Of a stretch of 33,607 nucleotides of DNA, positions 2,672 to 22,826 are shown piece by piece. Where the stretch lies: positions 88,725-122,331 of the IMG/VR virus record IMGVR_UViG_3300036790_000261, one strand, 5' to 3'. The notes beneath the pieces are model-generated. The model ran no database searches and was not told the DNA's origin. It saw only the letters and a list, made by a program, of their open reading frames with translations. A program made the translations under genes and the position numbers. This DNA comes from a virus. Lineage: Duplodnaviria > Heunggongvirae > Uroviricota > Caudoviricetes. Each line of letters begins with the position of its first letter. Position 1 is the stretch's first letter.

Positions 2672-2684
2672 GCTGCTAAATCCG

Positions 2685-3041
2685 AGCACAGCCAAGAAAA
2701 GCGAAGTTAAGTACAGCCTAGCCGTGCCTTGCGTAGCCAAGCCTAGCGGAGCAAAGGATCTGCCTTTCGCGGAGTCTGGCGTAGTTCAGCAAAACAAAGC
2801 ACAGCGTAGGATAACGCGTTTCCACAGCACAGCTGAGTTAAGAATAGCGTAGCTGAGCCCGGTTTAGCGGAGCTGAGCAAAGCCCAGGTTTTTCTTCCGA
2901 AGTCCAGCATTGCCCAGCAAAGTGCAGTTCAGTAGAGCACGCTCTAGCGGAGCTTAGTACAGCGTAGGGACCAAACTCGGAGCTTAGAAAAGCGATGCGC
3001 TAGCCAAGTGGAGCCCAGTTCAGTTTAGCCAAGCGTAGGGA
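2685..3041 (+). ncRNA. Array of five AGY-NN pentamer units (VIPR-like guide RNAs), each ending in AGG
   Basis: Strict 5-nt period, e.g. agcac agcca agaaa agcga agtta agtac agcct... Units are at 2685-2759, 2768-2812, 2826-2890, 2901-2970 and 2976-3041, with 8-14 pentamers each and short linkers. RNA status is inferred. Confidence 0.8.
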
Positions 3042-3045
3042 TTAC

Positions 3046-3543
3046 ATGACCGACGATGTGTACGTGTTTAAGTCTCCGAGTCGTCCCGGTGAGCTGAAGA
3101 TAGGTCACAGCGGTGACCGGGATCAACGGCTAGTAGCCGCTCGCACCTGGCTGGAGCAGGGCACGTTTATCGCGGAGTACCCCGGTGGCGGGTACGCGAT
3201 GGAGCAGTGGCTGCACCGGCAGCTAGAGGCAGCTGGTTATGAGCGCGACGGGCGGACGGAGTGGTTCCGGTGCGATCTGCGCGCGGTACAGCTAGCCGTC
3301 AACGTGGCGGAAGAAGCCGACGTGGAGTTCGTGGCACGGGCCGTTGCCGAGCAGCGTAAGCAGGAAGCGGCGCGGCAGCGGCTGACGGGGCAGCAGGTTC
3401 AGCGACAACTAGCTCTAGGCGTTCGCGACGCGGCGCTGCATGAAGCACAGGTCGCGCGGGAGAGCGCGCAGCAGGCGCAGAGGTCTTCTCAGCCTCGGTA
3501 CGAGCGCCCGCTGCCCCGGCTCCCGCGAGAAAGAGAGAAGTAG
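3046..3543 (+). CDS. T5orf172/MUG113-family (GIY-YIG superfamily) nuclease with a C-terminal helical tail
   Basis: Motif pattern VYVF...LKIGHS...RL...E..LH..L...EWF. An SD-like AGGG comes from the end of the last array unit. Confidence 0.8.
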   Translation: MTDDVYVFKSPSRPGELKIGHSGDRDQRLVAARTWLEQGTFIAEYPGGGYAMEQWLHRQLEAAGYERDGRTEWFRCDLRAVQLAVNVAEEADVEFVARAVAEQRKQEAARQRLTGQQVQRQLALGVRDAALHEAQVARESAQQAQRSSQPRYERPLPRLPREREK

Positions 3544-3548
3544 CAAAG

Positions 3549-4193
3549 ATGGAAAAGGTAGACAACCTCGTTACCGCTGAGATAACCGTGAGTGGCACGG
3601 GATACCTCACGCTGAACAATATCGACGCGGCTAACCCCGATCTCCCGCTGAACAAGGAGCACGCGGCGCTGGTTGACCGTGGCCGCGGAAAAAGCAACCG
3701 CACCGAGGTCGAGGAAGCGCGGATGCGCCGCATTCAATGGGAGCGCAGCCTCTACCTGAGTGCCGACCGGAAGCTCACGTTCCCGACGTACAACATCGCC
3801 TGCTGTTTCGTCGCCGGCGCGAAGAGCTACCGGCTAGGCAGCACCACCGAGCGCGCTCTGACCATGATGGAAATGGACGTTCCGCTGCGTTACGGCCAGG
3901 AGGAGGAGCGTCTCAACGAGATGAATCTCGACAAGCTGTGGGACTCCGGGGTCACGACGTGGAGCACGATTGTCAACGGGAATCCGTCCGCAGCTAAGGG
4001 TAGCTCCAAGGTCATGCTAACCCGGCCGCGCCTTCGCCCTTGGGCCCTTACCTGCACCGTCGAGGTAGACGTCCAGGTTCTCGACTGGGACGACTTTGAA
4101 AAGGTCGTGCACGCATCAGGTCGCGGAGTCGGTATCGGTAACGCGCGTAAGCTCGGACACGGACGGTTCACCGCGGAAATCAAGCAGCTTTAA
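3549..4193 (+). CDS. Phage Cas7/RAMP-like RNA-binding protein (Vipr-like)
   Basis: N-terminal ITVSGTGYLTLNN, central SLY...FPTYNI..CF..GAK, TRPRLRPWAL and a C-terminal glycine-rich loop GRGVGIGNARKLGHGRF typical of RAMPs. It is flanked by pentamer arrays. Confidence 0.78.
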   Translation: MEKVDNLVTAEITVSGTGYLTLNNIDAANPDLPLNKEHAALVDRGRGKSNRTEVEEARMRRIQWERSLYLSADRKLTFPTYNIACCFVAGAKSYRLGSTTERALTMMEMDVPLRYGQEEERLNEMNLDKLWDSGVTTWSTIVNGNPSAAKGSSKVMLTRPRLRPWALTCTVEVDVQVLDWDDFEKVVHASGRGVGIGNARKLGHGRFTAEIKQL

Positions 4194-4413
4194 AGCACGG
4201 AGCTTAGCGCAGTCGAGTACAGCTGAGTAGAGTGCAGCACAGTATAGCTTTAGCGCAGGATTTACCCGAAACCGTAGATAAGTGAAGCGAAGTGCAGTGC
4301 CGCCAAGCAAAGAGTAGAAAAGCATAGTAATTAATACGGAAGCCACACAGTTCAGCCCAGCGTAGTTAAGCGCGGATAAGCGGAGCTCAGTAGAGTACAG
4401 CCCAGCTTAGGAT
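4194..4413 (+). ncRNA. Second array of three AGY-NN pentamer units
   Basis: Units are at ~4196-4261, 4271-4330 and 4349-4413 (agctt agcgc agtcg agtac agctg...). Two of the three end in AGGAT. Confidence 0.8.
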
Positions 4414-4420
4414 CTACCCT

Positions 4421-21195: not shown

Positions 21196-21235
21196 GCTGT
21201 TTCCCTTTCACTTGCGGTCAACTGCCACGCGGCAG

Positions 21236-21544
21236 TTAGCTGGCGACGGACGTCCAGAACTGGCCGAGCTTGATGCTGTGGAAGGTGAATTCGTCTACGG
21301 CCACCCAGCTGCACGGGTTACTTAGCGCTGGCTTTCCGGGGCTAGTGCACAGGTTGATCTGGTACTCGACATCGTTAGCGTCGAACTCCGGTGTAGCGCC
21401 TGCGTAGTCCCACTGCGGGAAGTAATAAGCCTGGTAGACGTACCCGCTGGTTAGGGGCGGGGAGTCAGGGCCAATTGCGCACGCTGTTGCGCTCGCGAGC
21501 ACCCCGGCGATAACGACGGCAGCGGGCAGGATTCTCTTGTTCAT
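21236..21544 (-). CDS. Putative lipoprotein or secreted protein
   Basis: MNKR + hydrophobic stretch + ATAC lipobox-like Cys. Confidence 0.55.
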   Translation of the reverse strand: MNKRILPAAVVIAGVLASATACAIGPDSPPLTSGYVYQAYYFPQWDYAGATPEFDANDVEYQINLCTSPGKPALSNPCSWVAVDEFTFHSIKLGQFWTSVAS

Positions 21545-21627
21545 TCTCTTTCCTTTCACTTACGGTGGGTGAGGTAAGTACGCGACCGCCCAACTGCCAG
21601 CTGGCAGTCAGGCGACCGTGCGCCGGC

Positions 21628-21897
21628 CTACCCGACGGTGTGCGGGCCGTGCGAGTGCGGGAACCGCACCCCCTGCTCCGCCGCCATCTCGTCGACCTGG
21701 TGCCGGCTGAACGGCTCAGGCAGCGGTGCCGCGTCCGTGTCGTACTGCACCGCCCCCGCCTCAACCGTCGAGGCCCCGAGCTTGCGCAGCCACGTCATCA
21801 CGCGGCCGTGCGGCCTGGTGCGCAGCGCTGACGTCAGCCGCTCGCGGCGGTCCCGGTCCTGCTGCCGGGCAATCGCCCGGATCAACTCTGGGTGCAT
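21628..21897 (-). CDS. Hypothetical protein
   Basis: SD after the palindrome at 21920. Confidence 0.55.
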   Translation of the reverse strand: MHPELIRAIARQQDRDRRERLTSALRTRPHGRVMTWLRKLGASTVEAGAVQYDTDAAPLPEPFSRHQVDEMAAEQGVRFPHSHGPHTVG

Positions 21898-21934
21898 GCT
21901 GTTCCCCTTCTCTGTTGTGACTGCCACGTGGCAG

Positions 21935-22627
21935 TTAGAACCTCGCCCGCGGCGCGGCCAGCGCGGTCTCGTAGTTGGGGTGCAGCACCTTGTTGTCCTG
22001 CGCGATCCGCGCCTTCCACTGGTAGAAGCCGATCGGGGCGCCCTCCCACTCGGCGACGAAGCTGACGTAGGCCGGCGCCTTCATCTCGTGGTGGTCGTTG
22101 CGATCCGGCCCGATCTCGGCGACCTTGACGTCCCCCGCCATGAAGTGGAACTCCTCGGGCTCGCCGCTGGTCGGGTGCTTGTGGATGCTGACGGTGTCGG
22201 TCAGCATGACGGTCTCGCCCTCGGCGTGCTCCAGCCGCTCCGGTGACAGGACCTGGTGGCCGGTCAGGTGCGCGGTGTAGAAGCGGTTCAGGTCCGCCCA
22301 CGTCATCTTCAGGTCGGGCCGGTCCTGCGCCGGGTAGCCCGGGTCGTTCGGGTTGACGCACAGCGGCTCGACGGTCACCGTCATCCACGGGAAGAACGGG
22401 AACGAGGTGTACGCGTCGTGGACCGCCTGCACGTCCGCCACGTCCCACAGCGCGATGTGGTTCCTGGTGCCCGGAACACGCCACACCCGGGCGAACTCAC
22501 CCGACTCCAGGTACGGCCGGGCTGCCTCCGCCTCCGCCGCGTACATCTCCTGCTCCCACTGGTCATCCTTCACCAGGTCCCTGGCGGCCGGGAGCCTCAG
22601 GTTCATGCGGACGAGGAACATTGCCAT
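21935..22627 (-). CDS. Muconolactone delta-isomerase (CatC)-like domain plus a C-terminal extension
   Basis: MFLVRM...E...A..Y.ESG...RVWRVPG...IALWDVAD...H....SFPFFPWM.VTVEPL..NPND. Confidence 0.8.
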   Translation of the reverse strand: MAMFLVRMNLRLPAARDLVKDDQWEQEMYAAEAEAARPYLESGEFARVWRVPGTRNHIALWDVADVQAVHDAYTSFPFFPWMTVTVEPLCVNPNDPGYPAQDRPDLKMTWADLNRFYTAHLTGHQVLSPERLEHAEGETVMLTDTVSIHKHPTSGEPEEFHFMAGDVKVAEIGPDRNDHHEMKAPAYVSFVAEWEGAPIGFYQWKARIAQDNKVLHPNYETALAAPRARF

Positions 22628-22680
22628 TGCTTTCTCCTTCTGCTGACTGCCACGCGGCAGTTGGGTGATTGCTGTTTAAG

Positions 22681-22826
22681 GCAGTGCGGCCCGGCGCCTG
22701 TCTAGTAGGCATCGTTTCCGGGATAGCCGGGCCGCACTGCTGCTCTTTGGGCTTGCTGCGGTTAAGGCAGTGCGGCCCGGCGTTCCCAAACTGGGGGACG
22801 TATTAGGACTGGCCGGGCCGCACTGC
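22681..22826 (-). ncRNA. Two-unit TIGR-like stem-loop array (86-nt period)
   Basis: Identical 15-bp stems GCAGTGCGGCCCGGC enclose 30 nt. Minus strand: CCA-GTCCTAATA-CG-tccc-CCA-GTTTGGGAA-CG and CTA-TCCCGGAAA-CG-atgc-CTA-CTAGACAGG-CG. Confidence 0.7.

Follow-up and report, generated by a model that had tools for sequence, protein, structure and literature searches.

TIGR-Tas and VIPR are RNA-guided systems, both discovered within the last one to two years. The tigRNA of the former carries two 9-nt spacers, each flanked by its own box C and box D, with a tetraloop-like linker that parts the two halves; the TasR structure shows CCA as box C and UG as box D, and an xG box D pairs with CCA (PMC12045711 section 8). 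Stem-loop versions of the tigRNA have already been described (PMC12045711 section 9), and operons that combine tasA with tasParB have been published (Faure et al.). VIPR was described in 2026 as filaments of the Vipr protein carrying vrRNAs made of GGY/NN repeats, the NN letters of which read the DNA with one base skipped per dinucleotide (bioRxiv 10.64898/2026.04.26.720920); non-canonical triplets, for example WGT/NN, have since been reported (bioRxiv 10.64898/2026.10.21.760802). Here we analysed a stretch of 33,607 nucleotides (the window) that forms the final 33.6 kb (88,725-122,331) of the Caudoviricetes phage record IMGVR_UViG_3300036790_000261, a single contig of 122,331 bp with 66% G+C that CheckV rates as complete. 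An initial annotation of this DNA had noted a VIPR-like locus together with eight TIGR-like units, and the co-occurrence of both kinds of guide in one phage was upheld by our analysis, which confirmed the Vipr locus as well as the tigRNA grammar. We consider it probable (about 75%) that this phage possesses two independent RNA-guided DNA-binding systems, VIPR and a TIGR-TasA system that is split into a core locus and scattered guide genes. The core locus is ordinary; the unusual part is the scattering of guides instead of a tidy array.

Four compact arrays together with tasA and a ParB-like gene make up the core locus, which is located 4.4 to 10.2 kb ahead of the window start (Table 1). The tasA gene encodes 311 amino acids, sits between arrays C and D and lies 4,687 nt short of the first base of the window. 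It was recognised by its fold and its PHROG family only: Pfam Nop (PF01798) and IS110 (PF02371) had no match in the genome and no Pfam family was found in the 311-aa gene. An AlphaFold2 (AF2) model was built from 26 homologues (predicted local distance difference test score, pLDDT, of 77.8), and a Foldseek comparison with the PDB gave as its top 11 matches exclusively TasH/TasR cryo-electron microscopy chains (E 3e-6 to 5e-4, probability 1.00); the next matches were IS621/ISCro4, recombinases of the IS110 family. The sequence matched phrog_4285, annotated as 'transposase', with E=2.5e-25. The modelled fold thus points to a Tas protein, and since a nuclease domain is lacking the product is on this basis a TasA. 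The 346-aa gene downstream of array C had no sequence match in the PDB or Pfam. It gave weak but uniform matches to the ParB/sulfiredoxin fold (best E=0.011) and contains an invariant DGQHR motif, and it therefore fits the published tasA-tasParB operons. The four arrays hold about 30 units in total, of the form stem-CCA-N9-CG-N4-CCA-N9-CG-stem with complementary edges of 6-7 nt. These edges alternate and are mutually complementary (e.g. CCCCGG / CCGGGG). Neighbouring units share an edge, which serves as the 3' half of the stem in one and as the 5' half in the following one, so that the period is 38 nt. All of this describes an ordinary TIGR-TasA-tasParB system.

This finding changes the status of the window units, which the initial annotation had regarded as orphans with a partner protein encoded elsewhere in the genome or borrowed from a host or co-infecting element. 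Scans of the full contig with the Tas profile A1 and with phrog_4285 each gave one match, tasA, outside the window; there is accordingly no partner gene among the window's open reading frames (ORFs), as had been stated, and the partner is indeed encoded elsewhere in the genome. Because a complete, ordinary core locus with tasA adjoins the window, a borrowed partner is not needed and the orphan status, although accurate for the window itself, is an artefact of where the window begins. The alternative that a tas gene just outside the window would make this an ordinary TIGR system holds only in part: tasA is 4.7 kb away, but the eight units do not belong to its arrays A-D and stand 11.6-27.5 kb from it, past the plus-strand replication module and within other transcription units.

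All eight TIGR-like units of the window are on the minus strand and show a G+C-rich stem around CCA-N9-CG-N4-CCA-N9-CG. The stem closes a 32-nt loop that, by sequence and folding, is composed of box C (CCA), the 9-nt spacer A, box D (CG), a 4-nt loop, box C', the 9-nt spacer B and box D'. Across the eight units box C is CCA or one of the forms CTA, ACA, CCC and CAA, and box D is CG. The units had previously been placed at 6894-6937, 9150-9223, 11406-11567, 14332-14432 and 22681-22826 and proved to be real, with the canonical grammar. When either CCA or CTA was allowed as box, the 122-kb genome contained 37 instances of this grammar compared to 2.4 +/- 1.6 in Markov shuffles, a 15-fold enrichment. 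We trained a covariance model (R1) solely on the 30 array units beside tasA and scanned the whole genome with it; all window units but one were recovered, six of them at E-values of 4.9e-4 to 0.012 and the seventh at 0.058. The unit that was missed, 9150-9223, carries ACA as a box, and its inner stem is interrupted. For comparison we used two siblings of the phage from IMG/VR, both incomplete records: G001 (117 kb) and G002 (an 84-kb fragment), with TasA proteins 69% and 75% identical. The syntenic counterpart of 9150-9223 in G001 (at 108274) is canonical, with a common 14-bp outer stem (gtgccgggcgcggg / cccgcgcccggcac) and wholly different spacers, and this shared outer stem validates 9150-9223 as a unit. 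The two units near 22.7 kb have 14-bp stems identical to each other and unrelated spacers, one of them with CTA boxes. In the minimum free energy structure the closing stem was kept in all eight units, with folding z-scores from +0.4 to -7.1.

Table 1. Positions of the guide units and genes of the two systems, counted from the first letter of the window unless given as genome positions; R1 E, E-value of the covariance model trained on the arrays.
Feature	Position	Strand	Details
TIGR array A	genome 78,499-78,682	-	L001 2492-2689
TIGR array B	genome 79,926-80,148	-	L001 3919-4155
TIGR array C	genome 82,515-83,087	-	L001 6508-7094
tasA (predicted TasA)	genome 83,106-84,038	-	
TIGR array D	genome 84,064-84,324	-	L001 8057-8331
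VIPR guide array 1, five vrRNA-like units	2680-3041	+	AGY/NN pentamers; U1 2685-2759, U2 2773-2812, U3 2826-2890, U4 2901-2970, U5 2981-3041
T5orf172-domain gene, in the position of the vipr-accessory (vap) gene	3046-3543	+	Pfam PF10544, E=1.6e-8
vipr, RAMP-like Vipr protein, 214 aa	3549-4193	+	PDB 36pp match
VIPR guide array 2, three vrRNA-like units	4201-4413	+	U6 4201-4250 and following, U7 4276-4330, U8 4349-4413
Solo tigRNA-type stem-loop	6893-6938	-	R1 E=0.0076; folding z -2.5; junction of two convergent gene blocks
Solo tigRNA-type unit, ACA box C variant	9150-9223	-	14-bp outer stem; missed by R1; folding z -2.9
Mini-array of three tigRNA-type units	11405-11564	-	11405-11450, 11462-11507, 11519-11564; R1 E=4.9e-4, 2.6e-3, 0.058
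Solo tigRNA-type unit	14331-14376	-	R1 E=0.012; folding z -2.3
Two tigRNA-type units	22681-22826	-	22681-22740 (or 22688-22733) and 22767-22826 (or 22774-22819); R1 E=2.1e-3, 8.7e-4; folding z -6.9, -7.1

Scattering of the units extends over the genome and is found again in the siblings. Outside the arrays we counted about 18 units, alone or in groups of at most three, which occupy gaps between genes and reach as far as 79 kb from tasA. Ten of these, found with R1, lie beyond the window, namely a plus-strand trio at 4.8 kb and seven more at 42.7, 54.6, 76.6, 77.4, 79.4, 86.37 and 86.45 kb. About one third of all guide units are thereby placed outside the core locus, spread over more than 100 kb. 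All units occupy gaps between ORFs that are supported by third-position G+C content (GC3), and they have the same orientation as those ORFs. R1 scans detected at least 17 units away from the tasA arrays in G001, seven of these 12-20 kb downstream, and at least eight away from the arrays of G002 in the 84-kb fragment. A gene-by-gene comparison showed that at least three G001 units occur at the same intergenic places as the window units at 6893, 9150 and 11405-11564; besides the one described above these are L026 10001-10046 for 6893-6938 and a single unit, L026 13104-13149, for 11405-11564. Such syntenic units keep the scaffold and have unrelated spacers. At the contig level a soil relative (run X6) aligns with both flanks of 11365-11465 and of 14314-14370, and the letters in between differ, 11365-11465 being replaced by 47 other letters; this is consistent with turnover at unit sites. 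In the same run both flanks of 4196-4252 align to the relative's contigs and the letters of the VIPR guide U6 are replaced, and these guide positions, U6 and the two TIGR-unit sites, appear as variable spots between strains. The dispersed layout that had been called unusual is therefore borne out by units that lie outside the arrays and are conserved in siblings, and their action in trans is suggested by their position.

It could be argued that recombination has carried parts of TIGR arrays to other places and that the scattered units are their decayed remains, no longer serving as guides, with only the arrays beside tasA being at work. Indeed the scattered units score 25-38 bits with R1 while most array units score higher, up to 51 bits, their 4-nt loops are less A-rich than those of the arrays, one unit deviates to ACA and one to CTA in its boxes, and for their spacers no targets were found in the phage or its two siblings. 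Nevertheless, the boxes and the 9-4-9 spacing are intact in eight of eight window units. The stems vary from unit to unit yet stay paired through double changes: in 30 scattered units from the three phages, with the reservation that their alignment is fitted to the covariance model, 92% of the stem cells were paired against 64% in shuffles, 52 cells against 21 were doubly changed, and none of 500 shuffles reached the observed covariation score. The intact scaffold and entirely different spacers of the syntenic sibling units are the pattern of guide turnover, not of decay. Likewise the spacers, all of them unique (96/96), have a mean GC of 47% in the scattered units as in the arrays, and they show no drift towards the 64% of the surrounding non-ORF DNA in this genome of 66%. 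We therefore regard decay as unlikely and retain the reading of the scattered units as guide genes.

The location of the units relative to genes could also suggest that they are structural hairpins for phage gene expression (terminators, attenuators, RNase processing sites or stabilisers of mRNA), the box grammar being secondary. They stand at gene boundaries, the one at 6893-6938 where two transcription arms converge, and several lie in 5' leaders right before the ribosome-binding site. The three-unit mini-array is placed between a small gene (11596-11820) and an ATG at 11384-11386, and the unit at 14331-14376 in the leader of gene 13150-14310, downstream of a TACAGT hexamer and of a copy of a palindrome described below. 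Their stems are strong, reaching -42.6 kcal/mol. A plain hairpin, however, needs no CCA and CG boxes at a fixed 9-4-9 spacing, whereas the grammar here is enriched 15-fold and is the same as in the tasA arrays. The loops are 32 nt long and are not followed by a T-run, none of the eight units was called in a terminator scan, and Rfam contains no matching family. A role as mere hairpins thus seems very improbable, and the units are better read as tigRNA genes. The TACAGT hexamer, a candidate -10 element of the TANNNT type, is found on the minus strand at 11570-11575 and 14380-14385, 4-6 nt before the stems at 11.5 and 14.3 kb, and the mini-array and the 14.3-kb unit may therefore begin their own transcripts. 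A scan for consensus sigma-70 promoters did not call these hexamers.

How could such guides function at a distance from tasA? A scattered unit would share a transcript with the minus-strand genes next to it; host RNases would trim this RNA, and the one TasA dimer of the phage would take it up in trans. Given the lack of a nuclease domain in TasA, the complex would be expected to occupy an 18-bp site and thereby obstruct transcription or replication. TasA proteins have been shown experimentally to be RNA-guided, reversible transcriptional repressors (bioRxiv 10.64898/2026.09.09.750476), and stem-loop tigRNAs are known to associate with dimeric TasA, their two spacers pairing with opposite strands of the DNA (bioRxiv 10.64898/2026.08.11.744272). 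The target site would therefore consist of spacer A and, after it, spacer B in reverse complement, and we infer the same arrangement from the reported 3' overhangs of TasR cuts.

Several observations weigh against the proposed system of scattered guides. Three window units have R1 E-values of just 0.008-0.06 and one was missed by the model; two (z +0.2 and +0.4) fold no better than shuffled sequence. The conserved CUU at the stem base, reported as the processing motif of stem-loop tigRNAs (Xu et al. 2026, bioRxiv 10.64898/2026.09.09.750476), has a counterpart in both 22.7-kb units, where CTT directly follows the 3' stem, and is missing from the other six. The target searches point the same way. 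Using 48 guide units, six spacer arrangements and gaps of 0-6 nt, no site with at most one mismatch was found in the phage's own genome, and the own-genome counts at up to three mismatches equalled those of shuffled controls. G001 and G002 had no sites above shuffled controls at up to two mismatches. Self-regulation and an attack on these two siblings are thus unlikely. Exact scans of viral contigs with spacer A plus the reverse complement of B for three window units returned 0, 0 and 1 matches; the single match was taken as chance, because it falls inside a coding ORF of an AT-rich contig (the phage has 66% GC). Finally, some Tas proteins are reported to bind stem-loops and others dual repeats (section 10 of a preprint). 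That a single TasA serves both the compact arrays and the long-stemmed solo units is an assumption, since published work assigns the two guide types to different Tas clades.

Another possibility may be that the scattered units act as decoys, loading onto the TasA of rival phages and misdirecting it instead of arming the phage's own protein. Solo guides as counter-measures are documented for VIPR in the form of satellite-borne solo vrRNAs (bioRxiv 10.64898/2026.10.15.759431), and the sibling phages, with TasA proteins 69-75% identical and the same box grammar, occupy the same kind of habitat. Self-loading is the simpler explanation, though, given that a TasA using these boxes is encoded by the phage itself; the siblings also carry scattered units, and no class of decoy targets was identified. 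We judge a decoy function to be improbable and favour guides for the phage's own TasA.

The second system, VIPR, spans 2672-4420 of the window and contains the vipr gene, the T5orf172 gene and eight guide units. Strict period-5 repeats of a near-constant triplet and a variable dinucleotide, AGY/NN, were read directly from the sequence and then parsed at 2680-3041 and 4201-4413. The eight units are on the coding strand, comprise 5-14 pentamers each, and end with AGG in the majority of cases, followed by short tails of about 10-25 nt. As a single sequence the Vipr protein, encoded by one gene copy in the genome, matched the entry 'SUSP1 Vipr protein' (PDB 36pp) with E=1.5e-6, and a profile of 36 relatives matched it over nearly its full length with E=9.7e-43; at E<=1e-3 the family, a large one, comprises 893 representative clusters. 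The AGY/NN code recurs with different NN letters beside a 78% identical Vipr in a relative (L038). The VIPR-like locus of the initial annotation is therefore real and a true member of the family with a variant triplet, because the Vipr match, the fit to the guide rule detailed below, the shared code in L038 and the publication of other non-canonical triplets all agree.

To search for VIPR targets we applied the rule of a 1-nt skip to all eight units against the genomes of the phage, G001 and G002, with shuffled-order controls. Unit U1 matches the exonuclease coding sequence of G001 in codon register at 26 of 28 NN letters (93%; shuffled-order maximum 21), and U8 matches the polymerase domain of G001 on the opposite strand at 22 of 24 (92%; maximum 20). 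Both matches require a skip of one base, skips of 0 or 2 bases yielding none, and the skipped bases are at codon wobble positions. The other six guides had no match in the three genomes. At the phage's own homologous sites the agreement falls to 21/28 for U1 (75%) and 17/24 for U8 (71%), under the 80% threshold of the VIPR paper. These own polymerase sites, at 2177-2217 and 4697-4731, depart from the guides at NN positions by synonymous or conservative codon changes. From their sequence, it is as if the phage's polA had been recoded to evade its own VIPR guides. The outermost guides would thus read conserved polymerase codons in the way they are written in sibling phages, and the likely role that we infer for VIPR is the silencing of competing relatives.

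The VIPR cassette sits between the exonuclease and polymerase halves of PolA. This junction is an insertion hot spot, occupied by VIPR here and by an unrelated 2.8-kb insert in G001 (L026 4170-6988) with several ORFs and no Vipr. No Vipr gene was found in the incomplete records of G001 and G002, in a search that included a positive control. Since the siblings have TIGR with no Vipr found and the polA junction of G001 holds an unrelated insert, VIPR looks like a recent accessory acquisition.

Bringing both systems together leads us to speculate that tigRNA genes moved from the arrays and were planted, much like the genes of small nucleolar RNAs (snoRNAs), one by one in the leaders and trailers of different operons throughout the genome; TasA would accept compact and long-stemmed guides, would be re-armed with different guides as the early, middle and late transcription units fire, and would run beside an orthogonal VIPR system aimed at siblings. 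We offer this joint reading tentatively and hold the odds to be somewhat against it in its entirety.

The gene layout of the window gives the setting of these elements. A block of plus-strand genes from 164 to 6893 begins with a D5-type primase fused to the PolA 3'-5' exonuclease, followed by the VIPR cassette and then by the PolA polymerase domain and small genes; nearly all genes from 6947 on are on the minus strand. DNA near-identical to the phage was found in soil metagenomes only, and 25 kb of the window compared with GenBank phages by megablast gave no match. A perfect 16-bp palindrome, ACTGCCACGTGGCAGT, is present in 31 copies in the genome, 24 of them in the window between 5755 and 32174 (for instance at 9131-9146, 14417-14432, 22646-22661 and 27077-27092). 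It is mostly placed 12-20 nt before a start codon, its asymmetric flanks track the direction of the gene, and it has counterparts in the siblings (GTGCCACGTGGCAC, ten copies in G001; GTGCCAGCTGGCAC, seven in G002). Its probable function is that of an operator or of a hairpin in the 5' untranslated region, co-evolving with a phage factor. The idea that the TIGR-like units are copies of this palindrome proved wrong, the palindrome being a separate feature. Near the end of the genome there are three tandem 15-mers (CGGCGCATCCGTGGC) and a pair of 52-nt direct repeats (window 29592-29656 and 33428-33557).

What is new in this phage is the genome-wide scattering of guides, its conservation in siblings and the link of the window units to the tasA system. 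The TIGRFinder survey annotates arrays 'surrounding tas loci', its text is free of the words orphan, solo, dispersed and scattered, and published TIGR surveys look around tas genes only. As a family of phages scatters about one third of its guides, array-centred searches undercount them. In the literature that we searched no report placed VIPR and TIGR-Tas in one genome; a single paper names the two together, as separate subjects, both VIPR papers are silent on TIGR, and vrRNA and tigRNA never occur in the same paper. The phage thus offers a natural system for how two RNA-guided silencers divide the work of competition between phages, and its one TasA with compact and long-stemmed guides is a test of the proposed split of Tas proteins into dual-repeat and stem-loop types.

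Compared to the VIPR type II of Escherichia phage SUSP1 (bioRxiv 10.64898/2026.04.26.720920), the locus described here has in common a Vipr homologue, a two-gene layout flanked by pentamer-repeat guides, the 1-nt skip in codon register, targets in competing relatives and own sites below 80% of NN letters. It differs in the AGY instead of the GGY triplet, in its tails of about 10-25 nt, in the accessory gene with a T5orf172 domain, and in that the cassette splits polA and targets the relatives' sequences that flank its own insertion site.

The core locus resembles the dual-repeat TIGR-TasA/tasParB loci of Faure et al. in being phage-borne, with a nuclease-free Tas of the Nop fold, a ParB-like neighbour, arrays upstream, downstream and between both genes, CCA as box C and 9-nt spacers. 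Here, in contrast, box D is CG and not UG, the array edges are alternating complementary 6-mers common to neighbouring units, and about a third of the guide units are outside the locus, over more than 100 kb. Arrays A-D fit the feature of a tandem array beside tas and the window units do not. Arrays of TIGR stem-loops are known from the TasA of the Peromyscus leucopus gut (PMC12045711 section 9) and from two recent studies (Xu et al. 2026, bioRxiv 10.64898/2026.09.09.750476; Guan et al. 2026, bioRxiv 10.64898/2026.08.11.744272). There TasA is a transcriptional repressor and the genomic positions from which stem-loop tigRNAs are expressed were called 'flexible', the units being grouped into arrays or sub-arrays that adjoin the tas gene or lie within it. 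In our phage they occur instead alone, in pairs or in threes within other operons, at distances of 2-79 kb from tas, compact arrays coexist in the same genome, and the CUU follows only two of the eight window units.

The box C/D snoRNA genes of archaea and eukaryotes provide a likeness to the scattering itself, and clustered tigRNAs have already been set against sparsely spread snoRNAs of the same architecture (Faure et al., PMC12045711 Discussion). Both have two box-flanked guide segments and single genes that are distributed genome-wide, often inside other transcription units, and in both the guides serve one Nop-domain protein in trans, a mode of loading that we suggest for the phage. The snoRNAs differ in that they guide RNA methylation together with fibrillarin and L7Ae and carry K-turns, whereas the units of the phage are compact guides of the tigRNA type for a DNA-binding protein. 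Scattered tigRNAs would represent a natural intermediate between arrayed tigRNAs and the dispersed guide genes of the box C/D family.

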